NCBI GenBank assembly: GCA_035934055.1
Contig: DASYYF010000022.1
Location: forward strand, 4,877 to 68,876
Length of the DNA: 64,000 nucleotides
Direction of reading: 5' to 3'
Origin: Steroidobacteraceae bacterium
GTDB taxonomy: Bacteria > Pseudomonadota > Gammaproteobacteria > Steroidobacterales > Steroidobacteraceae
Shown here: piece after piece, positions 15,394 through 57,018 of the stretch
Layout of the letters: the number at the start of each line of letters is the position of its first letter
Position numbering within the stretch: position 1 is the first letter of the stretch
Program-made: the position numbers and the translations under genes
Notes under the pieces: generated by a model
What the model saw: only the letters and a program-made list of their open reading frames with translations
What the model was told of the DNA's origin: nothing
The model's database searches: none

Positions 15394-15499
15394 GACGCCT
15401 CCCAGGAGTCCGGCCGGGCGTGTGCCGGCGGATTAGAGCATGAACCGGCGGAGTTTGCGCTTTGATACCCTAGGCCGCCTCGCGAAGGAGGAGCGTCTC

Positions 15500-26970: not shown

Positions 26971-27864
26971 TTGAAGACGCTGCCATCCACCGCGCTCCCC
27001 CTGAACACCGAGATTGCGGCGCGGCTCGAGGAGGTTGCGCAGATCCTCGCCGGGCAGAATGCCAACCCGTATCGCCTCGCCGCGTACCGCGCGGCCGCCC
27101 GCACGCTGCGCAGCTGGCCGCAGCCCATCAGCGAGGTAGTGAATCAGGAGGGCGTGGCCGGCCTCAGGAAGCTCCCGGGCATCGGCGAGCGCCTGGCGCG
27201 GGCCGTCTACCAGCTGGTGCTGACCGGACGCCTGCCGATGCTCGAGCGGCTGCGGGGCGACAGTGATCCGGTCGAGCTGCTCGCGAGCGTACCGGGTATC
27301 GGCGCGAAGACCGCACAGCACATCCACGAGCGGCTCGGCATCGATACGCTGGAGGAGCTCGAGTGCGCCGCCCACGACGGCCGGCTCGAGCGCCTCGGCA
27401 TGGGGGCGAAGCGCCTCAGCGGTGTGCGCGATGCGCTGGCGGGACGGCTGGGGCGCGCCGGCCAGCGTCCGGCGCCCGAGCTCGGCTCGGCCCCGGACAT
27501 CGCCGAAGTGCTGGATGTCGACCGGCAATATCGCGAGGAGGCCGGCCGCGGCTCGCTGCCGCGGATCGCGCCGCGGCGCTTCAATCCGCGACACGAGGCC
27601 TGGCTCCCCGTGCTGCACGCCCGTCGCGGCGGACGCGAGTACACGGCCCTCTTCTCCAACACCGCCCGGGCGCACGAGCTCGCCCGGACCCGTGACTGGG
27701 TCGTCCTTTACTACGACGGCGCCGGAGCCGCCGAGCGCCAATGCACGGTGATCACCGCGGAGCGCGGACCGCTGCGCGGGCAGCGTATCGTCCGGGGACG
27801 CGAGGACGAATGTCTCGGGTACTACGCCCGCGCGGCCGGGCCGCCGGCGGCGTCCCCGCCCTGA
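26971..27864 (+). CDS. Helix-hairpin-helix DNA-binding protein resembling only the N-terminal (8-kDa/fingers) part of family X polymerases
   Basis: LNTEIAARLEEVAQILAGQNANPYRLAAYRAAARTL...LRKLPGIGERLA...LASVPGIGAKTA. No nucleotidyltransferase or PHP domain. TTG start. Confidence 0.65.
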   Translation: MKTLPSTALPLNTEIAARLEEVAQILAGQNANPYRLAAYRAAARTLRSWPQPISEVVNQEGVAGLRKLPGIGERLARAVYQLVLTGRLPMLERLRGDSDPVELLASVPGIGAKTAQHIHERLGIDTLEELECAAHDGRLERLGMGAKRLSGVRDALAGRLGRAGQRPAPELGSAPDIAEVLDVDRQYREEAGRGSLPRIAPRRFNPRHEAWLPVLHARRGGREYTALFSNTARAHELARTRDWVVLYYDGAGAAERQCTVITAERGPLRGQRIVRGREDECLGYYARAAGPPAASPP

Positions 27865-29814: not shown

Positions 29815-31200
29815 TCACAGCGCGTACTGCTGATGCAGAAGCGGCATCTCCACCGCCGTCCCGGGCAAGCGTGCGCTGAGGCTCTGCATCGTTTCCGGCT
29901 CGCCGTGCACCAGGAAGGTACGCGCGGCGCGGGTTGCTCCGTGCCAGCGCAGCAGCTCCGCCTGATCGGCGTGGGCCGAGAAGCCGTTGATCGTATGAAT
30001 GCGCGCCTGCACCGGGACCTCCTCGCCGAAGAGGCCGACGCTCCCGGCTCCATCGATGATGCGGCGCGCCAGAGTGCCGCGTGCTGCGAAGCCCACGAAG
30101 ATCACGGCACAGTTGTGGCGCCCGAGGTTGTGCCGCAGATGGTGGCGCACCCGGCCGCCGCCGCACATGCCCGATCCGGCGATGATGATTGCGCCGCCGA
30201 CGATTCGGTTGAGTGCGACCGACTCGGACGTCTCCCGGGTGAAATGCAGCCCCGGCAGGGCGAAGGGATCGCGACCCGCGCGGAACAGCTCGCGGGTCTC
30301 GGGCTGATAGCACTCCGGGTAGCGCGCGAATATCTCGGTGGCGGAGATCGCCATCGGCGAATCGAGGAAGACCTGCATCGTCTGCGGCAGACGGCCGGAT
30401 TCGGCGCCGGCACGCAGATAAAACAGCAGCTCCTGCGCCCGCTCCAGGGCGAAGCTCGGGATGACGACATTGCCGCCGCGCCCCAACGCCGCGGCGATGG
30501 CCTGGTAGAGCTCCTCGACCGAGGGGCCGATCGGCTTGTGCAGACGGTCGCCGTAAGTGCTCTCCATCACCACGGCGTCGGCCTGCGGCGGCGGCGCGGC
30601 GGTGCGCAGCAGCGGCCGGCCGATGTTGCCGAGATCGCCGGAAAACAGCACCCGGCGCCGCGCTCCGCCTTCCGCGAGATCGAGCAGGACGCTGGCCGAC
30701 CCGAGGATGTGGCCGGCGTCGAGAAAGGTCGCCGATATGCCGGGTGCCAGCGGCATCGGCGTGCCGTAGTGCGCCGTCAGGCCGACGAAATCCATCGTGT
30801 GCAGCGCATCGACGATGGTGTAGAGGGGTGCCGGCGTTCCCGGTGCGCCTTTGTGGGCCGTGTGCCGCGCGCGCCGCAGCGCCTCCTCCTCGTGCACGTG
30901 CGCCGCATCCAGCAGCACCAGGCGCAGCAGCTCGCGCGAAGCGCCCGTGGTCACGATCTCGCCGCGGAAACCGCGCTTCGCGAGGAGCGGCAGGCGCCCA
31001 CAGTGATCGAGATGGGCGTGCGTCAGCAACACGAAGTCGATGCCGCCGGGCTCGAAGCCGAAGGGTTCCGCGTTCTCCTCGTCGAGCTCGCACCCGCCCT
31101 GGTACAGGCCGCAATCGATGAGCACCCGCTTGCCGCCGCACTCGATGAGATGGCAGGAACCGGTGACGCCGCGGTCGGCCCCATGGAACTCGATCTTCAT
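29815..31200 (-). CDS. MBL-fold beta-CASP hydrolase (RNase J / CPSF-like, RNA-specificity domain)
   Basis: MKIEFHGADRGVTGSCHLIE...VLLTHAHLDHCGRLPLL...ESTYGDR...GFSAHADQAELL. This is only the last 461 codons of the 1613-aa track ORF. Confidence 0.85.
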   Translation of the reverse strand: MKIEFHGADRGVTGSCHLIECGGKRVLIDCGLYQGGCELDEENAEPFGFEPGGIDFVLLTHAHLDHCGRLPLLAKRGFRGEIVTTGASRELLRLVLLDAAHVHEEEALRRARHTAHKGAPGTPAPLYTIVDALHTMDFVGLTAHYGTPMPLAPGISATFLDAGHILGSASVLLDLAEGGARRRVLFSGDLGNIGRPLLRTAAPPPQADAVVMESTYGDRLHKPIGPSVEELYQAIAAALGRGGNVVIPSFALERAQELLFYLRAGAESGRLPQTMQVFLDSPMAISATEIFARYPECYQPETRELFRAGRDPFALPGLHFTRETSESVALNRIVGGAIIIAGSGMCGGGRVRHHLRHNLGRHNCAVIFVGFAARGTLARRIIDGAGSVGLFGEEVPVQARIHTINGFSAHADQAELLRWHGATRAARTFLVHGEPETMQSLSARLPGTAVEMPLLHQQYAL

Positions 31201-31225
31201 CGAGTCATGCTGGCACGGCCCGCGG

Positions 31226-31270
31226 GTGCCGGTACTACGTACAACTGCGGCTACGTCGCTCGCGGGGCGC
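31226..31270. promoter_or_regulatory. Conserved ~45-bp intergenic element, copy 2 (divergent MBL-RNase / 6-gene operon promoters)
   Basis: GTGCCGGTACTACGTACAACTGCGGCTACGTCGCTCGCGGGGCGC. It ends 42 nt before the + strand start codon at 31312. Confidence 0.4.
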
Positions 31271-31311
31271 CACCTATCATCGGCGGGCGAGGCTGACGGT
31301 GGCGGGGTTTC

Positions 31312-32391
31312 ATGAGTGCAGTCGAATCCGGTGTCCGCGATCCGCGGCCGATCGGGTCCATGGATGAGGTGATTGCTGCCAAGGTCGCCTTTCTGTCCGA
31401 TCCGGCCTCCTATCCAGACCACCCGCCGCGGGTCGAGCGGCGGGAAACGCATTTCGCGTGGGTGTTTCTCGCCGGCAGCCGCGCTTACAAGCTGAAGAAG
31501 CCCTCGCACCTGCGCGGCGCGGACTGGCGCACCACGGAGGCACGCGAGCTCGCCTGCCGCGAGGAGCTGCGGCTCAACTGCCGGCTGTCGGCCCCTACCT
31601 ATCTCGGCGTCGAGCCGCTCATCGAGACAGCCGCGGGCTTCAGGATCGGCGGTGACGGCCGCGCCGTCGACTGGCTGCTGGTGATGCGACGCCTGGACGA
31701 GCGGCGCATGCTCGACTCGGTGATCGCCGCGGGCGAGCTGCACGCCGGCGATCTCGACGTCGTGCTCGGGTTCCTGGTCGATTTCTACAGGTCGCGCGAC
31801 CCGCTGCCCTTCGCACCGGATACCTACCTGGGGCGCGTCAGGTCGCGCATGGACGAGGCCCTGACCGCACTGCAGAGACCCGAGCTCGGATTGCCGGCCG
31901 AGCGGATCGCACCGCTGGCGGGCGAGCTGAGCGGCGCCTTCGAGTTGCTGCGGCCCGAGCTCGCAGAGCGCGCGAGCGGGCACCGTATCGCCGAGGTGCA
32001 CGGGGATCTGCGCGCGGAGCACGTGTGGCTCGGGCCTCCCGTGCAGGTCATCGATGCGCTCGAGGTATACGCCGACCTGCGGATGCTCGACACGGCGGAG
32101 GAGATCGCCATGCTGGCGCTCGATTGTGAGCGCCCCGCGACCTCCTGGGCGCCCGAGTATTTGCGGGACCACTACCGCGACCTGGCGCGAGACCCCTGCA
32201 GCAACCGGCTGTTCGAGTTCTACATGGCGCTGCGCGCCGCCACCCACGCCAAGCTCGCGATCTGGCATCTCGACGATCCGCAGCAGTTCCCCGACCCGGC
32301 ACCCTGGCGCGCCCGCGCGCTCAGGGCCGCAGCCACGGCGCTGCGCCACTGCCGGGCCGCCGTGCCGGCGAGCCTCACCCGCTCGGCCTAG
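31312..32391 (+). CDS. Aminoglycoside-phosphotransferase-like (protein-kinase-fold) protein, stand-alone
   Basis: ETHFAWVFLAGSRAYKLKKP...CREELRLNCRLSAPTYLGVEPL...VHGDLRAEHVW. Paralogous to the N-terminal half of 47766..49334. Confidence 0.6.
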   Translation: MSAVESGVRDPRPIGSMDEVIAAKVAFLSDPASYPDHPPRVERRETHFAWVFLAGSRAYKLKKPSHLRGADWRTTEARELACREELRLNCRLSAPTYLGVEPLIETAAGFRIGGDGRAVDWLLVMRRLDERRMLDSVIAAGELHAGDLDVVLGFLVDFYRSRDPLPFAPDTYLGRVRSRMDEALTALQRPELGLPAERIAPLAGELSGAFELLRPELAERASGHRIAEVHGDLRAEHVWLGPPVQVIDALEVYADLRMLDTAEEIAMLALDCERPATSWAPEYLRDHYRDLARDPCSNRLFEFYMALRAATHAKLAIWHLDDPQQFPDPAPWRARALRAAATALRHCRAAVPASLTRSA

Positions 32392-32403
32392 CGCAACAGC
32401 CTC

Positions 32404-33420
32404 ATGCGCGCGATTCCCGAACCGTGCCTGTTCGCCCTGAGCGAGTCGCGCGACCTCGCCCTGAGCATCGCCGCGAGCGCCGGACTCGCCCTGGCGGCTC
32501 TCGAGGAGCGCCGCTTCGAGAGCGGCGAATTCAAGCTCCGCCCGCTCGAGTCGGTGCGCGACCGGACGGCGCTCGTCGTCGAGTCCCTCGCCGGCGACCC
32601 GGCGGTGCCGACGAGCGAGCGGCTGGTCCGTCTGCTGTTCCTGCTGTCCGGCTTGAGGGATGCCGGGGCGCTGCGCCGGACCGCGCTCGTGCCCTACCTG
32701 GCTTTCGCGCGCAAAGAGCGCCGTACCCAGCTGCGCGATCCGGTCAACACGCGCTACGTGGCGCAGCTGCTCGAGGCGGCAGGCCTCGACCGGCTCATGG
32801 CGCTCGACGTGCACAACCCGGCGGCCCTCGACAACGCCTTCCGTATTCCGGTCGATCACCTGAGCGCCATGCCGATGATGGTCGACCATTTTGCCCGGCG
32901 GCTCGGGGCGGCCCCGCTCACGGTCGTCTCGCCGGACGTCGGCGGCATCAAACGAGCGCAGCTGTTTTGCGAGCTGCTGCAGCGGCGGCTCGACCGCGAG
33001 GTGGAGATGGCGTTCATCGAGAAGCGCCGGGCACTGGATGTGGTCTCGAGCGGAGTGCTGGTGGGCGATGTCTCGCATCGGGACGTGATCGTCATCGACG
33101 ATCTGTGCGCCTCGGGCGGCACGCTGACGCGCGCGGCAGACTCGTGCCGGCGCGCGGGAGCACAGGCCGTGCATGCCGCGGCGACGCACGCGCCTCTGCC
33201 CGCCGGCCTCGCGGCCCTGCTGGCCGCGGGGACTCTCGAGAGCGTCGTGGTCACCGACAGCGTCGGACCAGGCCCCGCCGCCGCGCGCGCCTCCGCCGGC
33301 GGCTCGTCGCTCACGGTGCTGGCCGTCGGCCCGCTCTTCGGCCAGGCATTGCGGCGGATGGTGGACGGCAAGCCGCTCGCACCGCTCCTCGAGCGCTGGC
33401 CGGTCTCGCCGGCCGACTGA
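32404..33420 (+). CDS. Ribose-phosphate diphosphokinase (PRPP synthetase) family protein
   Basis: Full-length Prs pattern: RRFESGEFKLRPLESVRD...ALVPYLAFARKERR...DVHNPAALDNAFRIPVDHL...VVSPDVGGIKRA...VIVIDDLCASGGTL...VVVTDSV. Confidence 0.8.
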   Translation: MRAIPEPCLFALSESRDLALSIAASAGLALAALEERRFESGEFKLRPLESVRDRTALVVESLAGDPAVPTSERLVRLLFLLSGLRDAGALRRTALVPYLAFARKERRTQLRDPVNTRYVAQLLEAAGLDRLMALDVHNPAALDNAFRIPVDHLSAMPMMVDHFARRLGAAPLTVVSPDVGGIKRAQLFCELLQRRLDREVEMAFIEKRRALDVVSSGVLVGDVSHRDVIVIDDLCASGGTLTRAADSCRRAGAQAVHAAATHAPLPAGLAALLAAGTLESVVVTDSVGPGPAAARASAGGSSLTVLAVGPLFGQALRRMVDGKPLAPLLERWPVSPAD

Positions 33421-33432
33421 GCGGCTCCCGCC

Positions 33433-34473
33433 ATGGCTGCGAGCTATCTCATCACCGGAGGCGCCGGCTTTCTCGGCATCAACCTCTGCCGCTACCTGCT
33501 GGCCTGCGGCGAGCGGGTGCGTTCGCTCGACATCGCACCCTTTCAGTATCCGGATCGCCCACGGGTCGAGGTCATCGATGGCGACGTGCGTGACCCGGCC
33601 GCCGTCGAGCGCGCCGTGAGCGGCATCGACGTCGTGGTGCATGCCGCCGCGGCACTGCCGCTCGCCCCACCCGAGGAGATCGTCTCGACCGCCGTCCAGG
33701 GCACCCGGTTGCTGCTGCAGGCTGCCGCGGCCCACGGCGTGCGGCGCTTCATCTTCATCTCCTCCACCGCCGTCTACGGCATCCCTGACCATCATCCGCT
33801 GCTCGAGAGCGACCGGCTGCAAGGGGTCGGACCCTACGGCGAATCCAAGATCCGGGCGGAAGCACTGTGCGTCCACGCCCGCGAGGGGGGCCTGTGCGTC
33901 AGCATTCTGCGGCCGAAGAGCTTCGTCGGGCCGGAGCGCCTCGGCGCCTTCGAGCTGCTCTACAGCTGGGCCTGTGCGGGAAGAAATTTTCCGGTGCTGG
34001 GCGCGGGCAACAACCGCTACCAGCTGCTCGACGTCGAGGACCTGTGCCGCGCTATCGAGCTGTGCGCGAGTGCGGGCCCGGAGCAGGCCAACGACACTTT
34101 CAACGTGGGCGCGGCGGATTTCGGCACCATGCGCGAGAACTTCCAGGCGGTGCTCGATCGCGCCGGGCACGGCGCGCACGTCGTGGCGCTGCCCGCCAGA
34201 CCCGCGATCCTGCTGCTGCGGCTGGCGGAAGCGCTGCGCCTCTCGCCGCTGTACCGCTGGATCTACGCAACCGCATCGCAGGAGAGCTTCGTCTCGGTCG
34301 CGAAGATCGAGAGCCGCCTGGGATTCCGCCCGCGCTATTCGAATCGCGAGGCCCTGATCCGCAACTACGACTGGTACGTGGCGCATCGGCAGGAGCTCGG
34401 CACGCTGACCGGCACCACGCACCGCGTGCCATGGAAGAAGGGAGTGCTCCGCCTTGTCGAACATCTCTTCTGA
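33433..34473 (+). CDS. NAD-dependent epimerase/dehydratase (extended SDR)
   Basis: ITGGAGFLGINL Rossmann motif and catalytic PYGESKIRAE (YxxxK). Confidence 0.85.
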   Translation: MAASYLITGGAGFLGINLCRYLLACGERVRSLDIAPFQYPDRPRVEVIDGDVRDPAAVERAVSGIDVVVHAAAALPLAPPEEIVSTAVQGTRLLLQAAAAHGVRRFIFISSTAVYGIPDHHPLLESDRLQGVGPYGESKIRAEALCVHAREGGLCVSILRPKSFVGPERLGAFELLYSWACAGRNFPVLGAGNNRYQLLDVEDLCRAIELCASAGPEQANDTFNVGAADFGTMRENFQAVLDRAGHGAHVVALPARPAILLLRLAEALRLSPLYRWIYATASQESFVSVAKIESRLGFRPRYSNREALIRNYDWYVAHRQELGTLTGTTHRVPWKKGVLRLVEHLF

Positions 34474-35371
34474 GCTGCGCGAGCTCCGCGCCGGCGCCCT
34501 GCTGCCGGCGGCCCTCGAGAGCCTGCGGACGTACCAGTGGCTCAAGAACGCGCTGGTCTTCGTGCCGCTCGCCGCCGCGCATCGTCTCGGAGAGCCGCAG
34601 CTCCTGCTGCGTGCGTTGTATGTGTTCGTCGCCTTCAGCCTGTGCGCCTCCGGCATCTATCTGCTGAACGACCTGTGGGACGCGTCGGTGGACCGCGTGC
34701 ACCCCCACAAGCAGCTGCGGCCGATCGCCTCGGGGCGCCTGCCCCGCTCCGCGGCCCTCGTGCTGGCGGCTGCGCTGCTCGTCGCCGCCCTGGCCGCCGC
34801 CTGGCCGCTCGGTCTGCGGACCGCAGCCGCGCTGGGCGCGTACCTCGCGCTGATGGTTGCCTACACGCTGCGCCTCAAGGCGATCGTGCTGCTCGATGCG
34901 CTGGTGCTGGCCGGCGGCTACGCGCTGCGAGTTCTCGCCGGCGGGCTGGCGGTCGCGATCATCCCGTCGGCGCGGCTGCTCGCGTTCTGCATCTTCCTCT
35001 TCTTCAGCCTCGCTCTGGTGAAGCGCTACGCGGAGCTCGCGCTGCTGCGCCTGCGCGACGGCCCCGCCGCCCATGCCCGCGCCTATCTGCTCGAGGATCA
35101 GGAATTCATCGTCGCGCTCGGCACCTCCTGCGGCGCTCTCTCGGTGCTGGTGCTCGCGCTCTACATGAGCAGCGCGACCGTCGTACGGCTCTATTCGCGC
35201 GCGGAATTCATCTGGGTCACCTGTGTGCTGCTGCTCTACTGGATCAGCCACATGTGGCTGATGGCCCACCGCGGCCGCATGACCGACGACCCGCTGGTGT
35301 TCGCCGTCAAGAACCGGGTGAGCGCTGCGCTCATCGTGCTGATGGGAGCCACGGCGTGGCTCGCGGTCTGA
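34454..35371 (+). CDS. UbiA-family prenyl-phosphate phosphoribosyltransferase-like protein (DPPR synthase type)
   Basis: LRTYQWLKNALVFVPLAAA and LLNDLWDASVDRVHPHKQLRPIASG. About 8 TM segments. TTG start overlaps the SDR gene by 20 nt. Confidence 0.75.
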   Translation: MSNISSELRELRAGALLPAALESLRTYQWLKNALVFVPLAAAHRLGEPQLLLRALYVFVAFSLCASGIYLLNDLWDASVDRVHPHKQLRPIASGRLPRSAALVLAAALLVAALAAAWPLGLRTAAALGAYLALMVAYTLRLKAIVLLDALVLAGGYALRVLAGGLAVAIIPSARLLAFCIFLFFSLALVKRYAELALLRLRDGPAAHARAYLLEDQEFIVALGTSCGALSVLVLALYMSSATVVRLYSRAEFIWVTCVLLLYWISHMWLMAHRGRMTDDPLVFAVKNRVSAALIVLMGATAWLAV

Positions 35372-37119
35372 GCGGCGCCCTTGCGGGGGCGCTGCTGCTC
35401 CTCTCCTGCTCGTTCGCCGGCGAGCCGAGCCTGCCGCCGGCCGCAACGCTGGCGGCGCAGCGTGCCGAGTACGAGGCGGACGCGCCCAAGACCATCCTCG
35501 AGCTGCAGCCGTTCCGCAGCGCGACACGCGCTGCCGTCACGCGTGCCGACGGCACGCCCGGCACTGCCACCCTCACCAATCTCAATCCCTACGCGAATTC
35601 CTGGTACCTGCTCTCGATCGGGTGGCCGGCCGCGGCCGGCGGCTCGGCCAGCTACCACTTGCAGAATCCTTACCCGCTGCTGCAGGTGCTGCGGCTGCGC
35701 GCCGCCGATCCGCGCTCGGTGACCGTCGCCAACGACAGCGGCGTGCTCTGCACGCTCTGGTCCAGTGACGGCCGGGGCGCGCTCGCCGCGGCGGTCGCCT
35801 CGGGACTGCCTTACGCGCCGCTCTGCGGCGGCGCCCTGTACCTGCGCAATCCGGTCGCCGGCCATCATACGTCGCTCGAGCGGATCACGGACTTCCTGCG
35901 CGATCATGTCTGGGGTGGCGACCGCGTCGTGAACTTCGTAAAGCAGGAGTTCTACCGTGACGCGTTCCTGGAAAAAGGTGCGGTCGGCTCCGCCGCCGCC
36001 CCTGCTCCGGTCGCGCGGGGGCCGATGCCGGCAGAGCTCGCGCCGGAGTACGCCGGCGGCGCGACGGTCACCGAGCACCTGGCAATCGATCTGGGCAGCG
36101 CAGCACGCGAGCTGCAGCTCGGGCAATGGTACGCGGTACCCGGGCTCTCAGGAGTCTTCGTGAGCGCCATCGCGCCGCGGTACATCGCGCCGCGCCTTCT
36201 CGCGCACGAGGCCCATGTCAACGCGCTCGACCCGGTCGAGTCGGGCGCGCTCGCCTACCTCGTCGCCTTCGATCCGCAGCTCCTCGAGCTGCACTTCGTT
36301 CTCGGAACGGACCACCCGCGCCTCGACTGGTCGGAGCGGCCGCCGCCCGCGTCGCAGGATCCGCGCCTGCCGGGCCCGGACGGCGTGGGAAGCGCCGCGC
36401 CCCTCGTGACCAACGGCATGGTGAATCCCGCGGATGCGCCGCGCACGGTCGCGACGTTCACCGGGGGATTCAAGCGCGCGCACGGCGCATTCCGCGTCGG
36501 GGCGCTGGCCGAGCGCAATCACGGCAGCCATTACGGCTTCATCGAGCAGGGAGTCATATTCAGCAAGCTGCAGCCCGGGCTGTCGACGGTACTGGTCACT
36601 GATGACGGCGCGGCCGATCTCAGGACCTGGAGTGCGGCGGACGACGTGCTGCTGCCGCGCCTGCGCGATGTCCGCCAGAACGGCGTCCCGCTCATCGAAT
36701 ACGAAGCGCAGCAGCAGCGCGCGGTGCCCGGCGAGCTGGTCGACCGCTGGGGTCCGGGAAACTGGTCCGGCTCGGCCGAAGAGGTGCTGCGGACGCTGCG
36801 GGCGGGCCTGTGCCTGCAGCAGCAGGGGCGGCAGCGTTACCTCATCTACGGCTATTTCTCCGCAGCCACGCCGTCGGCGATGACGCGCGTGTTTCAGGCC
36901 TACCAATGCCGCTATGCGATGCTCCTCGACATCAACGCCCTGGAGCATACCTACCTCGCGCTCTACGTGAGCCGCGGCGGCCGGCGTCTGGTCGAGCATC
37001 TCGTCGAGGGAATGGAAGAGGTCGACCGCACCGCCGGCAAGGAGTTCGCGCCGCGCTTCCTGGCGTTCCCGGATGATCGGGACTTCTTCTACCTGACGAG
37101 GCGCGCGGCCGAGCCATGA
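35356..37119 (+). CDS. Lipoprotein, unknown function (C-terminal half possibly phosphodiester-glycosidase-like)
   Basis: GTG 35356 gives VARGLSGALAGALLLLSCSF (lipobox LLSC) and overlaps the UbiA gene by 16 nt. C-terminal TFTGGFKRAHGAF...YGFIEQGVIF...RYAMLLDINALEHTYL is only weakly reminiscent of PF09992. Confidence 0.55.
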   Translation: MARGLSGALAGALLLLSCSFAGEPSLPPAATLAAQRAEYEADAPKTILELQPFRSATRAAVTRADGTPGTATLTNLNPYANSWYLLSIGWPAAAGGSASYHLQNPYPLLQVLRLRAADPRSVTVANDSGVLCTLWSSDGRGALAAAVASGLPYAPLCGGALYLRNPVAGHHTSLERITDFLRDHVWGGDRVVNFVKQEFYRDAFLEKGAVGSAAAPAPVARGPMPAELAPEYAGGATVTEHLAIDLGSAARELQLGQWYAVPGLSGVFVSAIAPRYIAPRLLAHEAHVNALDPVESGALAYLVAFDPQLLELHFVLGTDHPRLDWSERPPPASQDPRLPGPDGVGSAAPLVTNGMVNPADAPRTVATFTGGFKRAHGAFRVGALAERNHGSHYGFIEQGVIFSKLQPGLSTVLVTDDGAADLRTWSAADDVLLPRLRDVRQNGVPLIEYEAQQQRAVPGELVDRWGPGNWSGSAEEVLRTLRAGLCLQQQGRQRYLIYGYFSAATPSAMTRVFQAYQCRYAMLLDINALEHTYLALYVSRGGRRLVEHLVEGMEEVDRTAGKEFAPRFLAFPDDRDFFYLTRRAAEP

Positions 37120-38222
37120 GCCGCAGCGGCGCGCAACTGGCGCTGTTGCTGCTGCTCGCGAGCGGAGCCGCGGCGGCACAGTCGACCGTGGCAGAGCAGA
37201 ACGCCGTGCTGCTGCGCCAGCTTCACGATGTCCACGGCCTGAGCGACGAGCAGATGCGACGCATCCGCGGGATCTTCGCGCGCTCGGCAATCATCGGTCA
37301 GGGCAATCCCGCGATCACGCGCCATCCGGTGACGCCCGAGCAATGCCTGGCGCAGCTCGAGGAGCGGGGCATCAGATATGCCAACCCGCTCTTCGAGCGG
37401 ATCTGCGGCGCGAGGTACATGGCGCCGCTCTACGATCCGGCCAAGTCCCGCCCCGAGGACGCGAGCGCCTGCGTCGACCAGTTCGAGTTCCCGGACATCC
37501 CGTGCGCCTATCCGGTGGTATGGGTAAAGGCGCGCGAGGCCGCCGAGCTGTGCGCGGCGGAGGGCAAGCGGCTGTGCGACGCCAACGAGTGGGAGGATGC
37601 CTGTCAGGGCCGCACCGAGCCGCCGGATTACCGTTTCGATCTCGCGGTGGGCGTGCCGCCCGAGGTGGCGATCCGCCGCATGCGCGAGGCCCATAACCGC
37701 GCACACGAGGGCGACAAGCGCTGGAGCTACGGGCCCGAGTACCAGCGCGGCATCTGCGCCACCGGGAGCTTCAAGTCTCCGGGCTGCAACGGCGGCAACT
37801 GGAACCAATGCGGCTCAAACACCTATCCCGCAGGCGCTTTCCCCGCGTGCCACAGTCCGCTCGAGGTCTACGATCTCAACGGCAATGCCGCCGAGCACAT
37901 GAATCTGCCGCTCAACGTGGGCGAGATGTCGAGCCGCGGCAGCACGACGCTCGGCTACACCGAGATGAAGGGCAGCTGGTTCACCTTCGACACTTACCGC
38001 GCGCACGAGGACTGGTGCCGCTGGCGCGCGCCGTACTGGCACGGCTCGCGCGTCATGGACCCGCACAGCCACGCCAACTACCACCTGGGATTCCGCTGCT
38101 GCAACACGCTGACCGCGAAGCGGCCGGGCGCAAGCCTTACCGTGGCGCCGCCCGCGCCGTCAACAGATCCCGCAGCGCCGCCAGGCGCTGCGCGAGCTGC
38201 GGCCACGGTCCCTCGCCGGTAA
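37116..38222 (+). CDS. Exported formylglycine-generating-enzyme (FGE/SUMF1) fold protein
   Basis: Signal peptide LALLLLLASGAAAAQS. CDANEWEDAC, DLNGNAAEHMN, MKGSWFTF and the terminal HLGFRCC block. ATGA overlap with the upstream stop. Confidence 0.75.
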   Translation: MSRSGAQLALLLLLASGAAAAQSTVAEQNAVLLRQLHDVHGLSDEQMRRIRGIFARSAIIGQGNPAITRHPVTPEQCLAQLEERGIRYANPLFERICGARYMAPLYDPAKSRPEDASACVDQFEFPDIPCAYPVVWVKAREAAELCAAEGKRLCDANEWEDACQGRTEPPDYRFDLAVGVPPEVAIRRMREAHNRAHEGDKRWSYGPEYQRGICATGSFKSPGCNGGNWNQCGSNTYPAGAFPACHSPLEVYDLNGNAAEHMNLPLNVGEMSSRGSTTLGYTEMKGSWFTFDTYRAHEDWCRWRAPYWHGSRVMDPHSHANYHLGFRCCNTLTAKRPGASLTVAPPAPSTDPAAPPGAARAAATVPRR

Positions 38223-39105
38223 GCAGCCGCGCGGGCCCGGCCTCCGCCAGCAGCTCGCGCAGCGAGCGCGGCACGCCGTTCAGGTAGGCGGTGTCGCTCA
38301 CGAGCCGCACGCCGTGGCTGTAGTCCGCGTAGCGCGCACCGTGCACGGTACTCAAGGGCTGGATGGGCGCACCCACGCCGCGGTGCCAGCCGTAGATGGC
38401 GACCCGCCCGGGATTGGTCCACAGCCGGCTGGTGAGCACCAGATCCTTCTTGTCGCCGGCGGTGAGCTCGCCGAGCGGCGCGGAGAGTGCGGCCCGTTGC
38501 TCGCCGATCAGCTGGCTGTGCTCCACGAGATAGGCGGTGCTGCGCATCTCTTCTCCGGGCGGCAGCGGCAGCGGCGCGAGCTTCACGGGCGCGGCCGCGT
38601 AGATCGCGTCCACCATGTGCGGCGTCGGCAGCTCGAACCCGAAGCGTTGCGCCACCGCGAGCGCCGCCTCGAGGCCGAGCGGCACGAAGATGAAGTCGCG
38701 GTCGGAGCCGACCGCGAGATAATCGGGCAGCACGCACAGTGTGAGCTCGAGGGGGTGCGTCCGGTCCCCGCCGGCGATGCGCACCGGCACCGGGTGTCGC
38801 AGAAACTGCGGAATGTTTCCGGCCAGGAGCTCCCCGCGGATCAACGCATCGCGGGACACACCCGAGAGCTGCGCGGCACGCTGTGCGACCGCGCTCCCCG
38901 GGGACGCAGCAGCAGCCCGCGGCGGAATCGCGGCGACCGCGTCCGCCTCGCAGGCTGCGGACGTGGACGTGCGCGGAGCCTGCGCCGCACGGGCGCCGGC
39001 CTCGGCCGCGCCGGCGGTCGCGGCGAGCAGTGCGAGGCAGAGGCCTGCGCAGCGGGCCGCCATTCGCACGGCGTGGGGTCGTAACGTCATGGTGGGTATC
39101 GGCAA
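38137..39105 (-). CDS. Secreted hypothetical protein
   Basis: Signal peptide CAGLCLALLAATAGAAEA. No recognisable family. The 3' end overlaps the convergent FGE-like gene by 86 nt. Confidence 0.5.
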   Translation of the reverse strand: MPIPTMTLRPHAVRMAARCAGLCLALLAATAGAAEAGARAAQAPRTSTSAACEADAVAAIPPRAAAASPGSAVAQRAAQLSGVSRDALIRGELLAGNIPQFLRHPVPVRIAGGDRTHPLELTLCVLPDYLAVGSDRDFIFVPLGLEAALAVAQRFGFELPTPHMVDAIYAAAPVKLAPLPLPPGEEMRSTAYLVEHSQLIGEQRAALSAPLGELTAGDKKDLVLTSRLWTNPGRVAIYGWHRGVGAPIQPLSTVHGARYADYSHGVRLVSDTAYLNGVPRSLRELLAEAGPARLLTGEGPWPQLAQRLAALRDLLTARAAPR

Positions 39106-39348
39106 ATTACCGGGGTGCCGGGGCTTTGACCAGCCGGCGGCGTGCGAGTTTCTGCGCTCCGACCCCTTGAAAAACGCTTCTCCGCGCGCAATGTCGGGGC
39201 AGAGGCGCGCACCCGAGCGGCGCGCATGAAGCGCTCCCTTTCCGTCGCCGCGTAAGTACTTGCACGAATCGACCGTACCCGCCGGACGCTCGCACCCTTG
39301 AGGTCTCGCAAGAGGCAGCGCGCCTCAGACTCAGTCGCGGACACTACC

Positions 39349-39897
39349 ATGATCATTCCACTGCAGATCACGTTCCGGCACATGGATCCTTCGCCCGCTC
39401 TGGAAGCGCGCATTCGCGAGCTCGCCACCAGGCTCGACCGGTTCAGCGAGCACATCATGCGCTGCCGCGTGGTCGTCGAGCCGCTGCCGCGCCATTCACA
39501 TCAGGGTGCGCTCCATGACATCCGTATCGACATCACGCTGCCCGACGATGAGATCGCCATCCGCCGCGCCCACCCCGGCGATCACGCCCACGAAGACCCC
39601 TACGTGGCGCTGCGCGACGCATTCCACGCTGCCCGGCGCAAGCTCGAGGACTACGAGCGCAAGCACCGCCTGGACGTCAAGAGTCACGTGGCGCCCGCTG
39701 AGGGGCGGATCTGCGAGCTCGATGCCGCGCGCGATGGCGGCCGCATCGAGACCGACGACGGGCGCCTCATCTACTTCCATCGCAACAGTGTCCTCGGCGG
39801 CAGGTTTCAGGACCTGACGACGGGCACCAAGGTGCGCTTCGTCGAGGAAGCCGGAGATCTCGGGCCCCAGGCGAGCACGGTGCGTGTGGTTGCCTGA
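39349..39897 (+). CDS. Ribosome hibernation factor (HPF/RaiA N-domain) fused to a cold-shock-like domain
   Basis: MIIPLQITFRHMDPSPALEARIRELATRLDRF...DPYVALRDAFHAARRKLEDYERKHR (S30AE/HPF). C-terminal GRICELDAARDGGRIETDDGRLIYFHRNSVLGG..LTTGTKVRFVEEAGDLGPQASTVRVV (CSD-like). Confidence 0.75.
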   Translation: MIIPLQITFRHMDPSPALEARIRELATRLDRFSEHIMRCRVVVEPLPRHSHQGALHDIRIDITLPDDEIAIRRAHPGDHAHEDPYVALRDAFHAARRKLEDYERKHRLDVKSHVAPAEGRICELDAARDGGRIETDDGRLIYFHRNSVLGGRFQDLTTGTKVRFVEEAGDLGPQASTVRVVA

Positions 39898-41223: not shown

Positions 41224-42951
41224 TCAGCGGCGCGCCGCCTTGAGGAGCGTGCGCAGCTCGGCGAGCGGGCGCGCGTTGAGCACGTCCTGCCGGCGCGCCC
41301 AGCCGCGGCGCGCCTGCCGCACCGCGCAGTCGAGAAAGGCGAATTGCTCGGCCGAGTGGGAATCGCTCGCGAGGCTCAGCAGCACGCCGGCGTCGCGGGC
41401 CGCCTTGACGTGCACGTCGTCGAGGTCGAGACGGCTGGGCTGGCCGTTGACCTCGAGGCAGCAGCCGCGCTCGCGCGCCGCCGCGATGACGCGCCCGAAA
41501 TCGAGTGCCAACGGCGCGCGCTCGCCGAGCAGCCGTCCGCTCGGGTGCGCCAGGACGTCGACGTGGGGGCGCTCGAGCGCACGCAGCACGCGTGCCGTCT
41601 GCTCGGCCTCGGGCTTGTCGAAGTGACCGTGGATGGCGATGACCACCACGTCGAGCCGTGCGAGCACCGCGTCGGGCAGCGCCAGACGCCCATCCTCGAG
41701 AATGTCCACCTCCGCACCCTTCAGCACCACGAGACCCTCGAGCTTCTCGTTGAGCGCATCGATGGCGTCCGCCTGACGCGCCAGCCGCCCGGCGTCGAGG
41801 CCGTGAACGATGCCGAGGTGCTGCGCATGGTCCGTGATCGCCACATAGCGCAGCCCGCGCCGCCGCGCGGCCTCGACCATGCCCGCGAGCGTGTCGCGGC
41901 CGTCGGAGGCGTCGGTGTGCACGTGCAGGTCGCCCTGCAGGTCGCTGCGCTCGATGAGCTTCGGCAGCGCGCCGTGCTCGGCCGCCTCGATCTCGCCGCG
42001 GTCCTCGCGCAGCTCCGGCGCGATCCACGCGAGCCCCAATGCCTTGAAGAGCTGCTGCTCGCTCGCGCCCGCCACGCGCTTGCCGTCGCGAAACAGGCCG
42101 TATTCGCTCAGCTTGTAGCCGCGCTCCTGGGCCCGCCGGCGGATGTGGATGTTGTGATCGCGGCTGCCCGTGAAGTAATGCAGCGCCGCTCCGAAGCTCT
42201 GCGGCGCCACCACGCGTATGTCGACCTGCAGGCCGTTGCGCAGCACGCCGCTCGCCCTGGTGGTGCCGGCCGCGGTCAGAGTGCGCAGGTCCGGATACGC
42301 TCGCAGGGCCTCGAGCGTCGCAGCCGCCGTGCGCGCCGCGACGAGCACGTCGAGATCGCCGACCGTGTCGCGGCCGCGGCGGTAGCTGCCGGCGATCTCG
42401 ACCTCGCTCACGCCGGGCACCGCGCGCAGATACTCCCGCAGCGGCTCGGCATCCTGCGCGGCCACCGTGCGCAGCGGCCGCTTCGGAGCCCGCTCACTCG
42501 CGCCGGCCAGGGCCGCCCGCAGGCGCGCCTCGAGCGCGGCGCCGAAGCCGCGCAGCCGTGAGAGCCGCCCGGCGGCAAGCGCGCGCCTGAGGTCCGAGCG
42601 GTTGCGGATACGCAGTCCGCTGCGCAACGCCCGCACCCGCACGGGACCGAGGCCCGGAAGCTCGAGCAGCTCGCGCAGGCCCGCCGGAACCTGCCGCCGC
42701 AGCTGCACGAGTGCCCGCAGCTCGCCGGTCCTCACCAGCTCGGCGATCTTGCCGGCGAGATCCGCGCCTATGCCCGGGAGCTTCTCGTACTCGTCGGCGC
42801 CCTTCATGGCCGAGAGCTCCTGAGGGAGGCCGCGCACCACCTGCGCGGCGAGCTGGTAGGCGCGGATCCGGAACGGGTTGCCGCCCTGGATGGCGAGCAG
42901 GTCCGCCATCTCCTCGAATGCGGCCGCCACCTCTTCGTTGTGCACGCTCAT
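41224..42951 (-). CDS. polX: Family X DNA polymerase with C-terminal PHP domain (PolX)
   Basis: EEMADLLAIQGGNPFRIRAYQLAAQVV...LPGIGADLAGKIAEL...GSYRRGRDTVGDLDVLV...PHP DLHVHTDASDGR...AITDH...SDSH. ATG 42951. Confidence 0.9.
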   Translation of the reverse strand: MSVHNEEVAAAFEEMADLLAIQGGNPFRIRAYQLAAQVVRGLPQELSAMKGADEYEKLPGIGADLAGKIAELVRTGELRALVQLRRQVPAGLRELLELPGLGPVRVRALRSGLRIRNRSDLRRALAAGRLSRLRGFGAALEARLRAALAGASERAPKRPLRTVAAQDAEPLREYLRAVPGVSEVEIAGSYRRGRDTVGDLDVLVAARTAAATLEALRAYPDLRTLTAAGTTRASGVLRNGLQVDIRVVAPQSFGAALHYFTGSRDHNIHIRRRAQERGYKLSEYGLFRDGKRVAGASEQQLFKALGLAWIAPELREDRGEIEAAEHGALPKLIERSDLQGDLHVHTDASDGRDTLAGMVEAARRRGLRYVAITDHAQHLGIVHGLDAGRLARQADAIDALNEKLEGLVVLKGAEVDILEDGRLALPDAVLARLDVVVIAIHGHFDKPEAEQTARVLRALERPHVDVLAHPSGRLLGERAPLALDFGRVIAAARERGCCLEVNGQPSRLDLDDVHVKAARDAGVLLSLASDSHSAEQFAFLDCAVRQARRGWARRQDVLNARPLAELRTLLKAARR

Positions 42952-42994
42952 GAATGCAGTCCGTGAACACACTCCGGCAAACGGCAGCCGCGAC

Positions 42995-43010
42995 GAATAC
43001 GGGAAAGTGC
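42995..43010 (-). promoter_or_regulatory. Shared promoter-proximal motif GAATACGSGAAAGTGC, copy 2
   Basis: The + strand reads GAATACGGGAAAGTGC, 15 of 16 identical to 41031..41046. It lies 43 nt upstream of the PolX ATG (42951) and about 105 nt upstream of nrdJ (43115). Confidence 0.45.
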
Positions 43011-43114
43011 CTAGCCCGCGCCGACCGTGGCGAGATCCGCGCGCGCCGCTAGGTAGTCGTGCGGATGCCCCTGGCGCGCCCGGCCGGCAGGCTTGCGGGA
43101 GGATCGTTCCGCAG

Positions 43115-44962
43115 ATGGCGCAGTTACCCATGTCCGCCGCGACCGAAGAGACTCTGCCGCAGTTCATGTGGCGGACGCGCTACCGGGATAGCGAAGCGTC
43201 CCCGCCCGAAGCCGATCTCGGTGCCACCTGGCGGCGGGTTGCCGCGAGCGTCGCCGCGATCGAGCGCGAGCCGCAACTCTGGCGCGAGCGCTTCCTCGGC
43301 ATCCTCAGGAACTACCGCTTCCTGCCGGGAGGCCGGATCCTCGCAGGCGCCGGTACGCAGCATCAGGTGACGCTGTGCAACTGCTTCGTCATGGGCCTCA
43401 TCGACGACTCGGTGGAAGGCATCTTCGAGGCGCTCAAGGAGGGAGCGCTCACGATGCAGCAGGGAGGCGGTATCGGCTACGACTTCTCGACACTGCGGCC
43501 GCGGGGGGCGCGTGCACACACCAGCGGCACGATCGCCTCGGGACCCGTGTCGTTCATGCGGGTGTGGGATGCCATGTGCGCGACCGTGCTTTCGACCGGC
43601 GCGCGCCGCGGCGCCATGATGGCGACCCTGCGCTGCGACCACCCGGATATCGAGGAGTTCGTCGCGGCCAAGCGCGAGCCCGAGGCACTGCCGCGCTTCA
43701 ATCTCTCGGTGCTCGTCACCGATCCCTTCATGGAGGCGGTGAGGCGCGACGATGAGTGGCCGCTCGTATTCCCCGAGCGCGAGCTCCAGGGCGAGGCGCC
43801 GGCCGGGACCCTCGAGCGCAGCTGGAGCGGCAGCGCCGTGCCGGTGGCGTGCCGGATCCACAGGGTGATCCGCGCGCGCGAGCTGTGGAGGCGGCTCTGC
43901 GACAGCGCCTACGACTGCGCCGAGCCCGGCGTGCTCTTCATCGATCGCATCAATGCCGAGAACAACCTCGGCTACTGCGAAACGCTGAGCGCCACGAACC
44001 CGTGCGCCGAGGAGCCGCTGCCCTCCTTCGGCGCCTGCAATCTCGGCTCGCTCAATCTGACCGCCTTCGTGCTCGATCCGTTCACGCCGCGCGCCCGCCT
44101 CGATCAGGGCTCGCTGCGCGAGGTGGCCCGCCTCGCGGTCAGGTTTCTCGACAACGTCATCGAGATCTCGCGCTTTCCGCTCGCGCGCCAGCGCGAGCAG
44201 GCGCACCGCTCGCGCCGCGTCGGACTCGGGGTGACGGGGCTCGCCGATGCGCTCGCGATGCTCGGTCTGCGCTACGACAGCGAGGCGGCACGCAGCGCGG
44301 CCGCCGACACCATGAAGGTGGTGCGCGACGCGGCCTACGAGGCCTCGGTCGGGCTGGCGGGCGAGCGCGGCGCGTTCCCCGCCTTCGACGCCGGACAGTA
44401 CCTCGAGCGGCCGTTCATCCGCAGACTGCCGCCGCACCTCAAGGAGGCGATCCGGCGTCAGGGGATCCGCAACAGCCACCTGCTGGCGATCGCACCGGCC
44501 GGCAGCATCAGCCTCCTGGCCGGCAATCTGAGCAGCGGCATCGAGCCGATCTTCGGGCGCGAGACCGCACGGCGCGTGCTCGACAGCGACGGCCGGCGGC
44601 GCGATTTCCTCCTCACCGATTACGCCTACGCCGCCTGGCGGGCGCGCGGTGCAAGCGGCGGCGCCGCGCCGCCGGATGCGTTCCTCGACTGGCGCTCGCT
44701 CAGCGCCCGCGATCATCTTCTCATGCAGGCCGCGCTGCAGCCCTGCGTGGACGGCGCCATCTCCAAGACCGTGATGCTGCCGCACGCGCTGCCGCCTGCG
44801 AGCGTGATGGAGATCTTCCAGAGCGCCTACGAGCTCGGGCTCAAGGGCTGTACGGTATTCCGCGAAGGTACGCGCCGTGCGATCGTCGCCGGCACCGCGG
44901 CGGCCGCGCCGCCGCCGGTCGAGGGAGCGCACTGCCACGACATCGAGCGCGAGTGCGACTGA
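43115..44962 (+). CDS. nrdJ: Class II (adenosylcobalamin-dependent) ribonucleotide reductase
   Basis: RFLPGGRILAGAGT...CNCFV...MQQGGGIGYDFSTLRPRGA...GARRGAMMATL...ATNPCAEEPLPSFGACNLGSLNL. Confidence 0.9.
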   Translation: MAQLPMSAATEETLPQFMWRTRYRDSEASPPEADLGATWRRVAASVAAIEREPQLWRERFLGILRNYRFLPGGRILAGAGTQHQVTLCNCFVMGLIDDSVEGIFEALKEGALTMQQGGGIGYDFSTLRPRGARAHTSGTIASGPVSFMRVWDAMCATVLSTGARRGAMMATLRCDHPDIEEFVAAKREPEALPRFNLSVLVTDPFMEAVRRDDEWPLVFPERELQGEAPAGTLERSWSGSAVPVACRIHRVIRARELWRRLCDSAYDCAEPGVLFIDRINAENNLGYCETLSATNPCAEEPLPSFGACNLGSLNLTAFVLDPFTPRARLDQGSLREVARLAVRFLDNVIEISRFPLARQREQAHRSRRVGLGVTGLADALAMLGLRYDSEAARSAAADTMKVVRDAAYEASVGLAGERGAFPAFDAGQYLERPFIRRLPPHLKEAIRRQGIRNSHLLAIAPAGSISLLAGNLSSGIEPIFGRETARRVLDSDGRRRDFLLTDYAYAAWRARGASGGAAPPDAFLDWRSLSARDHLLMQAALQPCVDGAISKTVMLPHALPPASVMEIFQSAYELGLKGCTVFREGTRRAIVAGTAAAAPPPVEGAHCHDIERECD

Positions 44963-44988
44963 GCGGGCTTTCCAGCGGACGCGCGGCG

Positions 44989-46350: not shown

Positions 46351-46366
46351 GAGGCCGGAACCCCTG

Positions 46367-46382
46367 ATACTTGTGCGTATTC
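46367..46382 (+). promoter_or_regulatory. Variant of the shared motif (ATACTTGTGCGTATTC)
   Basis: 12 of 16 match GCACTTTCSCGTATTC in the same gene-proximal orientation, 36 nt upstream of the PRTase ATG at 46419. It lies in the divergent pncB/PRTase intergenic region. Confidence 0.35.
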
Positions 46383-46418
46383 TCGCATCGTCCCTGCCGG
46401 CGCGAGACTGTAGGGAGG

Positions 46419-49334: not shown

Positions 49335-49377
49335 GGAAAGAAGCATGCGCCCGTGGCCGAGGTCTGCGCGCATCGCG

Positions 49378-49392
49378 ATAAGTGCGTATGGC
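49378..49392 (+). promoter_or_regulatory. GATAAGTGCGTATGG element upstream of the cytochrome c gene
   Basis: It shares GATA and the 8-mer GTGCGTAT with 46366..46382. The TAT lies 35 nt upstream of the ATG at 49425 (37 nt in the PRTase copy). Confidence 0.3.
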
Positions 49393-49424
49393 GCCCGCTC
49401 TGGCGCCCTGCGAGGGGTTGCAGG

Positions 49425-51746: not shown

Positions 51747-51927
51747 CCGCCGCCGGCCACCGGCCTTCCGCTCGCGGTGGAAAAAGCGCAGCTCCTGCCT
51801 AAGCGTGTCACAAGTTCCTGATTTAACGGTAAGCTTTGGTGGGCGCGCGACGGTCGCTGCGTCCGTGCGGCGGCCCGGCCGGTAGTACCATTCGGCCAGC
51901 CATCACGCGGCCCGCTGAGAACTGGCC

Positions 51928-56967: not shown

Positions 56968-57018
56968 CGCCCAATCGGCCCGCGCGGCCAGTGCGCGCAG
57001 CGCTACCGGCGAGCAGCC

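Follow-up and report, generated by a model that had tools for sequence, protein, structure and literature searches.

A conserved gene module pairing a polyprenyl-phosphate phosphoribosyltransferase homologue with three exported proteins in a Steroidobacteraceae bacterium

The window analyzed here is a stretch of 64,000 nucleotides from a Steroidobacteraceae bacterium (GenBank assembly GCA_035934055.1, contig DASYYF010000022.1, positions 4,877 to 68,876), with a GC content of ~70%. Near its middle, six plus-strand open reading frames (ORFs) encode a kinase-like protein, a paralogue of the phosphoribosyl pyrophosphate (PRPP) synthase Prs, an extended short-chain dehydrogenase/reductase (SDR), a UbiA-family homologue of polyprenyl-phosphate 5-phosphoribosyltransferases and two exported proteins, and they converge on a minus-strand gene for a third exported protein ( Table 1 ). 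The three exported proteins (gene 5, gene 6 and the minus-strand core gene) are referred to below as the trio. What is new at this locus is the trio itself, which is widespread, lacks a described function and stands where described systems for lipid-linked pentoses have a flippase and a glycosyltransferase of the GT-C fold.

Gene content of the locus

Since spurious long ORFs are common at this GC content, the gene models were tested in two ways, by their codon-position GC pattern and by independent gene calls on identical Logan contigs (public read assemblies). The six same-strand coding sequences described in an earlier note on this DNA were all recovered in the ORF list with the coordinates given there and with junctions of +12, +12, -20, -16 and -4 nt. 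The Logan calls returned the same models for genes 2 to 6 (338, 346, 305, 587 and 368 aa) and placed the start of gene 1 48 nt further in, at ~31360, yielding a product of 343 aa. Proteins identical to those of the locus are found in a metagenome-assembled genome of Steroidobacteraceae. The codon-position pattern, with a GC content at third positions of 0.86-0.90, backs genes 1 to 4 and gene 6; gene 5 failed this filter, its signal being diluted within a longer ORF. Two other ORFs were rejected as high-GC artefacts, namely a 487-aa plus-strand ORF at 29833-31296, where the genuine gene is the minus-strand beta-CASP hydrolase, and a 1613-aa minus-strand ORF at 29815-34656. As the gene upstream of gene 1 is this minus-strand beta-CASP metallo-beta-lactamase, the operon starts at gene 1. 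At the opposite end, the 3' ends of gene 6 and the minus-strand core gene overlap by 86 nt. A promoter and terminator scan of positions 31000-39500 recovered nothing exceeding the shuffled expectation.

Table 1. Genes of the locus and their assignments (positions are those of the window)
Feature	Position	Strand	Assignment
Beta-CASP gene	29815-31200	-	beta-CASP metallo-beta-lactamase (RNase J/CPSF-like); upstream of and divergent from gene 1
Gene 1	31312-32391	+	kinase-like protein (possibly APH fold), 359 aa, or 343 aa from 31360
Gene 2	32404-33420	+	ribose-phosphate diphosphokinase (PRPP synthase) paralogue, 338 aa
Gene 3	33433-34473	+	extended SDR, 346 aa; candidate polyprenyl-phosphate pentofuranose epimerase
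Gene 4	34454-35371	+	UbiA-family polyprenyl-phosphate 5-phosphoribosyltransferase homologue, 305 aa; TTG start; ~8 transmembrane segments
Gene 5	35356-37119	+	exported protein, 587 aa; GVG-type GTG start; lipobox-like LLSC; predicted NAGPA/DUF2233-like fold in the C-terminal half
Gene 6	37116-38222	+	exported cysteine-rich FGE/SUMF1-fold protein, 368 aa
Minus-strand core gene	38137-39063	-	exported protein, 308 aa; no fold match; convergent with gene 6

The product of gene 4 belongs with the phosphoribosyltransferases of the UbiA family and not with its quinone or haem enzymes, as the earlier note had proposed from a motif (LLNDLWDASVDRVHPHKQLRPIASG) that is indeed present in the protein. It matches PF01040 at 85.8 bits (cut-off 34.2) and contains eight hydrophobic segments. 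The closest NCBIfam model is PRK08238 (E 1e-99), followed by the models of decaprenylphosphoryl-5-phosphoribose (DPPR) synthase (E 1e-40), whereas other UbiA subfamily models reach ~1e-16 or worse (TIGR01474, ubiA_proteo, 2.8e-4; cyoE, 3.6e-7) and the quinone, haem and chlorophyll prenyltransferase models are weaker by at least 25 orders of magnitude. The top solved structure is Mycobacterium tuberculosis Rv3806c (8j8j, E 2.5e-28), against an E of 2e-5 for the next solved UbiA protein, DGGGP synthase, and the active-site loop of gene 4 aligns residue for residue with that of Rv3806c (YLLNDLWDASVDRVHPHKQLRPIASG against YLVNDVRDVEADREHPTKRFRPIAAG). Residues N72, D73, D76, D80, R191 and E194, which make up the NDxxDxxxD of loop II and the R..E of loop IV, are invariant among 22 homologues. 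They correspond to N247, D248, D251, D255, R366 and E369 of ORF15 of Citrobacter youngae, the first four of which are required for the activity of that enzyme (PMC11127046).

Gene 3 encodes an extended SDR, as assigned earlier from its GGAGFLG and YGESK motifs, both of which are present; the protein matches PF01370 at 135 bits and 3Beta_HSD at 86 bits. Its top NCBIfam matches are lipid-acting SDRs (HpnA, OleD), all far under their cut-offs; among solved structures, sugar-nucleotide dehydratases and epimerases come nearest (E 1e-23). The TGGxGFxG motif, SST, Y135 and K139 are invariant among 20 homologues, and the protein is devoid of the Asp-Glu pair that we take to mark 4,6-dehydratases. On these sequence features, gene 3 is a candidate auxiliary epimerase for a lipid-linked pentofuranose.

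The Prs paralogue encoded by gene 2 is full length, in agreement with the earlier note. It scores 203 bits against TIGR01251 (cut-off 113), matches PF13793, PF00156 and PF14572, and aligns end to end (residues 9-328) with the Prs structures of Thermus and Bacillus (E 6e-45 to 6e-42). Its motifs are intact, including PYxxxAR, DxH, EKRR (the catalytic KRR loop) and DDxxxSGGT (the PRPP loop). Gene 1 lacks a Pfam or NCBIfam match. A profile built from 16 homologues matches the aminoglycoside phosphotransferase APH(3')-VIII marginally (E 0.005), over a region spanning the HGDL catalytic loop (HGDL...D), and an APH-like/AAA_33 protein encoded at 47766-49733 shares 33% identity with it (E 3e-31) over its own N-terminal part. 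The kinase fold suggested previously for gene 1 thus receives weak backing from the APH match and from this clear paralogue, and none from the family models. As a possible home of the Prs and kinase genes, the lxa low-oxygen locus of Burkholderia was weighed and dropped; its paper mentions neither UbiA nor Prs.

Gene 5, the first member of the trio, has no match in Pfam or NCBIfam. More than 2,600 homologues (after clustering at 90%), every one annotated as hypothetical, were retrieved, forming 964 clusters at 50% identity (E<=1e-3). The AlphaFold2 model of the protein has a predicted local distance difference test (pLDDT) score of 67 and a predicted template modelling (TM) score (pTM) of 0.71. 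Foldseek searches with this model recovered a Bacteroides DUF2233 protein (3ohg; E 1.4e-4, probability 1.00, TM 0.49) and the catalytic domain of NAGPA, a GlcNAc-1-phosphodiester glycosidase (6pku_B; E 2.6e-3, probability 0.97, TM 0.42). The C-terminal half had previously been guessed to belong to PF09992; this guess finds some backing at the level of fold, but none at that of sequence, as the PF09992 model, searched up to E<=10, matches neither gene 5 nor any of 40 homologues. Some distant relatives (P0452, P0459, P0465, P0508) carry N-terminal tetratricopeptide repeats (TPR), and beyond these repeats no informative fusions occur among the longer relatives of gene 5. A tblastn search of the PLSDB plasmids with gene 5 gave no match.

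Gene 6 matches PF03781 at 30.8 bits (cut-off 23.3), consistent with its earlier assignment to the fold of the formylglycine-generating enzyme (FGE). Its profile matches SUMF1, SUMF2 and FGE structures only, weakly (E 0.05-0.1), and the alignments to FGE span residues 127-169 only. No alignment was obtained for the catalytic cysteine pair of FGE. Also, there is no sulfatase gene in the neighbourhood of gene 6. The protein is 56-85% identical between phyla, with ~14 invariant cysteines and long invariant blocks, and by its sequence appears only distantly related to true formylglycine-generating enzymes. The minus-strand core protein has a signal-peptide-like N-terminus and more than 3,700 homologues, every one hypothetical. 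No Pfam signal, weak consistent ones included, was found across 41 members of this family. Its AlphaFold2 model is confident (pLDDT 78, pTM 0.79) and has no fold match in the PDB (best E 1.7); profile searches recovered no solved relatives for either this protein or gene 5. The SHGVR motif of this protein looks like the L,D-transpeptidase site SHGC(I/V)R, an apparent likeness that was dropped, the fold search having returned no YkuD match.

Conservation of the module in related loci

The occurrence of these genes was analyzed in the 80 closest UbiA loci with flanks of 10 kb, obtained by a UbiA alignment scan and limited to one genome per species. These loci were searched with the proteins of the window and with DprE1, DprE2, HAD, MprF-type transmembrane and GT-C queries drawn from the loci themselves. 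A homologue of gene 5 directly follows the UbiA gene in 64 of the 80 (hereafter module loci), gene 6 is present in 56 of these 64 and the minus-strand core gene in 58. Once loci shorter than 18 kb are set aside, gene 6 is present in 44 of 47 and the minus-strand core gene in 45 of 47. Carriers of the module include Gamma-, Alpha- and Betaproteobacteria, Desulfobacterota, Syntrophales, several lineages of Acidobacteriota and one candidate phylum, and the core gene order is kept across phyla. In Nevskia soli DSM 19509 every junction in the series SDR, HAD-UbiA fusion, gene 5 and gene 6 is a 4-nt overlap; 4-nt overlaps also occur in a Bordetella metagenome-assembled genome (MAG), but the SDR-UbiA junction there overlaps by 20 nt. 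These overlaps suggest translational coupling.

The conserved unit differs from the one drawn in the earlier note, which counted the kinase-like gene as its first member and missed the minus-strand exported protein. A homologue of gene 1, an accessory gene mostly found in the company of Prs, is linked in 16/64 module loci only. In 28/64 module loci a Prs gene is found no more than 10 kb away, as against only one of the 16 non-module UbiA loci, which are of the DprE1/E2-GT-C type or orphans. Other genes of the surrounding island are found near the module an order of magnitude less often, the FtsH paralogue, the hibernation promoting factor (HPF), PolX, the ribonucleotide reductase (RNR) and the beta-CASP hydrolase in 0-3/64 and the nicotinate phosphoribosyltransferase (NAPRTase) in 0/64. 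The link of the PRPP synthase to the UbiA unit proposed earlier is therefore upheld by its recurrence.

Most relatives of gene 4 carry an N-terminal HAD domain (48 of the loci; PF12710 in L054). In a rough neighbour-joining tree the UbiA protein of the window falls in a HAD-less clade, and the GT-C-associated paralogues form a separate clade. The HAD phosphatase domain is lost in the clade of the window: no such domain is found in gene 4, and the stop-to-stop interval (34409-35371) leaves no space for one. Two NCBIfam equivalog models also match gene 4, NF006088 over profile positions 192-480 of 482 and NF008978; the equivalog score of the former is not reached because the N-terminal 190 profile positions are absent from the protein.

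An SDR is encoded in 40/64 module loci and a DprE1-like protein in nine, which are without the SDR and usually have a DprE2-like classical SDR; both never occur together. As they do not co-occur, the SDR and DprE1/DprE2 look interchangeable and appear to occupy the same functional slot as in published systems. This swap at one position amounts to a natural experiment on how pentose identity is set. In seven acidobacterial loci (L040, L042, L047, L052, L055, L061, L073) a DUF362 protein follows the minus-strand core gene, and neither an SDR nor DprE1/E2 is nearby.

Of the 16 loci without the trio, nine have DprE1/E2, in some cases together with an MprF-type transmembrane protein, and one locus (L075) has a PMT_2 GT-C. 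The other seven show no conserved partner within the available sequence, and among these L016, L018, L020 and L034 are orphan paralogues that lack the HAD domain. One MAG (CAVYKH010000001.1) harbors four UbiA paralogues, three of which (L016, L018, L020) are such orphans in unrelated contexts while the fourth (L045) lies in a full module.

When all ORFs of the 80 loci were clustered, no family of flippases or GT-C enzymes proved to be conserved next to the trio, and the PMT_2 GT-C query from L075 had no match in the window or in any module locus. The window itself has no DprE1, DprE2, HAD, MATE or GT-C gene, no PAP2-like phosphatase candidate and no large polytopic ORF, which confirms, within 64 kb, the earlier statement that a DprE1-like flavoenzyme, a PAP2 phosphatase and a GT-C are missing. 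The only other polytopic ORF is a major facilitator superfamily protein 24 kb away. In four of the closest relatives, an ABC-2 type transporter permease that is absent from the window adjoins the minus-strand core gene (L007, at 14771-15760 on the minus strand, L008, L017 and L022); it is a possible exporter or flippase in those genomes.

A candidate pentofuranose donor pathway and its alternatives

Taken as a whole, the locus is read, with a probability of about 0.6, as a variant of the PRPP-derived systems that make a polyprenyl-phosphate pentofuranose donor, in this case used by the exported trio. The Prs paralogue would supply PRPP, as its homology and genomic linkage suggest. At the inner face of the membrane, the UbiA enzyme would then move 5-phosphoribose from PRPP onto a polyprenyl phosphate, in line with its homology to Rv3806c and ORF15 and with its conserved residues; the carrier lipid is presumably undecaprenyl phosphate, the host being Gram-negative. 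As there is no fused HAD phosphatase, the 5-phosphate would be either removed by an unlinked enzyme or retained. The SDR would epimerize the lipid-linked ribofuranose through a transient keto intermediate, giving xylofuranose if it acts like ORF13 of C. youngae, or another epimer. This step is suggested by the intact GalE-type catalytic triad and by the mutual replacement of SDR and DprE1/DprE2 in sister loci.

The trio, made up of the NAGPA-like protein, the highly conserved FGE/C-type-lectin-fold protein and the protein without a fold match, would use the lipid-linked pentose in the periplasm, in place of the flippase and GT-C of known systems. The bond most plausibly acted on by its NAGPA-like member, gene 5, is the sugar-1-phosphodiester of the lipid donor, with the pentose either released or passed on, as fold and gene linkage suggest. 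The fold is of relevance here because a polyprenyl-phosphate sugar is itself a sugar-1-phosphodiester. A stronger proposal makes of the trio a new kind of periplasmic machine for glycosyl transfer or processing, unrelated to GT-C, with polyprenyl-phosphate pentofuranose as its direct substrate; it must be regarded as improbable for the present. On that proposal, an envelope component that bears pentofuranose and has so far gone unseen would be widespread among soil bacteria (Proteobacteria, Acidobacteriota and Desulfobacterota), and some lineages would make it during stress or growth arrest, with PRPP from a dedicated supply.

Several observations weigh against this donor pathway. The UbiA protein scores below the NCBIfam equivalog cut-offs, just (334 vs 351 bits, NF006088) or well (139 vs 207 bits, NF008978), and the clade of the window is without the phosphatase domain of the proven enzyme, with no substitute within 64 kb. 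The SDR was set beside C. youngae ORF13 by the published description of the latter. The NAGPA-like call derives from a model of medium confidence (pLDDT 67, target-normalized TM 0.42-0.49) without PF09992 signal in 40 members, and the functions ascribed to the trio would follow from fold and linkage. Also, the co-occurrence counts ignore shared ancestry. The acidobacterial and deltaproteobacterial module loci have no Prs gene, and in the window Prs lies close to PRPP-using salvage genes, which it may serve too. Finally, genes for a GT-C and a flippase may lie in other parts of the genome, of which 64 kb are in view.

This last point leads to an alternative in which the locus is a standard three-component pentofuranose system with its flippase and GT-C at a distance, the trio being unrelated to the lipid-linked sugar and either modifying or binding the same envelope polymer or performing a separate periplasmic job. 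That all characterized users of polyprenyl-phosphate pentofuranose are GT-C enzymes (PMC11127046) speaks for it, as do the small portion of the genome covered by the window and the pairing of sister UbiA paralogues with a GT-C and an MprF-type transmembrane protein. Yet the trio lies beside UbiA in 56-64 of the 80 loci, in several phyla and often with overlapping stop and start codons, and a GT-C is never there; linkage as tight as this usually denotes a single pathway, and the alternative is considered unlikely. A different doubt concerns the head of the operon, where Prs and the kinase-like gene might belong to a stress and nucleotide-salvage island (RNR, NAPRTase, a phosphoribosyltransferase (PRTase), PolX, HPF and an FtsH paralogue) and have come to lie by local happenstance. 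A NAPRTase, a PRTase-domain protein and an RNR are indeed encoded 5-9 kb downstream, a paralogue of gene 1 lies within the island, and Prs varies in position and strand besides being missing from the loci mentioned above. The recurrence of Prs near the module, set against that of the NAPRTase, RNR, PolX, HPF and FtsH genes and against its rarity at non-module loci, makes such happenstance rather doubtful, if somewhat less so than the preceding alternative.

The remaining alternative, that UbiA is an ordinary aromatic prenyltransferase for quinone, haem or chlorophyll and that the operon has nothing to do with pentoses, draws on the generic nature of the Pfam match and on the Joint Genome Institute (JGI) label of many homologues, '4-hydroxybenzoate polyprenyltransferase'. 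It is effectively refuted by the scores of the aromatic models relative to those of PRK08238, DPPR synthase and the Rv3806c structure, and by the sister loci in which the same UbiA family is fused to a HAD phosphoribose-phosphatase domain and stands beside DprE1/DprE2.

At these loci, a phosphoribosyltransferase of proven type is tied, across phyla and thousands of environmental sequences, to three undescribed exported proteins and never to a GT-C. To our knowledge, all extracytoplasmic use of polyprenyl-phosphate sugars runs through a membrane enzyme of the GT-C type, normally accompanied by a flippase dedicated to it. If the lipid-linked pentose is what the trio consumes, these proteins would form an enzyme class of their own, hitherto undescribed, and abundant soil bacteria would be expected to carry an envelope glycoconjugate that is not yet known. 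As the module occurs in a cultured strain, Nevskia soli DSM 19509, these predictions are directly testable.

Neighbouring genes and known systems

The earlier note placed the operon in a dormancy-type island. Such a setting is seen in a fraction of the Proteobacteria, with genes for universal stress proteins, PAS histidine kinases, LuxR regulators and HPF near the module, and is not seen at the acidobacterial and deltaproteobacterial loci. In the window, a ribosome hibernation factor (Ribosomal_S30AE) with an unusual architecture, being fused to a C-terminal cold-shock domain, is encoded at 39349-39897 (+); this fusion is kept beside the module in L007 and L008. A 297-aa protein at 26971-27864 (+), adjoining the FtsH paralogue, consists of the helix-hairpin-helix N-terminal region of PolX only, and a full PolX-PHP gene lies 13 kb downstream of this fragment (41224-43167, -). 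Genes for an RNR large-subunit homologue, a NAPRTase and a 244-aa PRTase-domain protein cluster at 42878-47105; the last two use PRPP, lie 7-9 kb downstream and could also be fed by Prs. The gene 1 paralogue at 47766-49733 (-) is a protein of 655 aa that joins an N-terminal gene 1-like region to a C-terminal AAA_33 P-loop kinase domain.

Further downstream, the 51919-56286 (+) interval encodes a 1455-aa fusion of CheB, CheR, PAS, GAF and histidine kinase domains. Two PAS hybrid histidine kinases (50226-51668 and 58497-59930) are 41% identical to kinases adjoining the module in other genomes. Also present is an S-adenosylmethionine synthetase (56968-58209, +) that matches PF01941 (AdoMet_Synthase) at 480 bits, a family which we take to be the archaeal type and which would be unexpected in a gammaproteobacterium.

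The closest known relative of the proposed pathway is the three-component extracytoplasmic pentofuranose glycosylation system of C. youngae O1/O2 (Kelly, Duong, Nothof, Lowary, Whitfield, PNAS 2024; PMC11127046). There, ORF15 (PPPRS), a HAD-phosphatase/UbiA fusion, was demonstrated biochemically to make polyprenyl-phosphate ribofuranose from PRPP, the GalE-like SDR ORF13 alone converts undecaprenyl-phosphate ribofuranose to undecaprenyl-phosphate xylofuranose, and the system is completed by the MATE flippase ORF14 and the GT136 GT-C ORF12; DprE1/E2 homologues are found in candidate systems of arabinofuranose-containing glycans (PMC11127046). The earlier claim of an undescribed pathway does not stand for the front half of the locus, since a Gram-negative PRPP route with a single GalE-like SDR has thus been shown experimentally (PMC11127046). 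The enzymology proposed in that note, in which a Gram-negative bacterium makes a lipid-linked pentose donor by means of a single extended SDR and not of DprE1/E2, was sound and fits this route, so that the front half is of a known kind. Both systems share a UbiA phosphoribosyltransferase with the same catalytic motifs and a single GalE-like auxiliary SDR, and the N-terminal HAD fusion of the ORF15 type is shared by most relatives of the window gene, although not by its own clade. Unlike C. youngae, the window and the 64 related loci have three exported soluble or lipid-anchored proteins and neither a MATE nor a GT-C gene, and the window has a linked, dedicated PRPP synthase paralogue and sits outside an O-antigen or capsule cluster.

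The mycobacterial decaprenyl-phosphoarabinose pathway employs PrsA, the UbiA enzyme Rv3806c, the PAP2 phosphatase Rv3807c, DprE1/DprE2 and the GT-C enzymes of the Emb/Aft type. It shares with the proposed pathway the first committed step and epimerization after attachment to the lipid, and some sister module loci have DprE1/DprE2 homologues. The identity of gene 4 to Rv3806c is moderate, with an alignment limited to the N-terminal two-thirds. Unlike the mycobacterial genes, those of the window include no PAP2 phosphatase, DprE1, DprE2 or GT-C, and the host is Gram-negative (Steroidobacteraceae).

Closer at hand are the D-arabinofuranose clusters of the Pseudomonas type, which comprise a HAD-UbiA fusion, DprE1-like and DprE2-like proteins, an MprF-type LPG_synthase_TM protein and a PMT_2 GT-C (L075, Pseudomonas frederiksbergensis). 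Their UbiA genes are paralogues of that of the window, with 46-50% identity and membership in the same PRK08238 family, and fall in a separate clade of the rough tree. In contrast to the module, these clusters have a flippase-like protein and a GT-C and are without the trio. With respect to the trio, the nearest described proteins are the NAGPA 'uncovering enzyme' and the bacterial DUF2233 proteins (PF09992). Gene 5 differs from them in its extra N-terminal beta-rich domain and in having no detectable PF09992 sequence similarity, whereas the predicted fold of its C-terminal half resembles theirs (3ohg, 6pku), and the known substrate of the family and the substrate proposed for gene 5 are both sugar-1-phosphodiesters.

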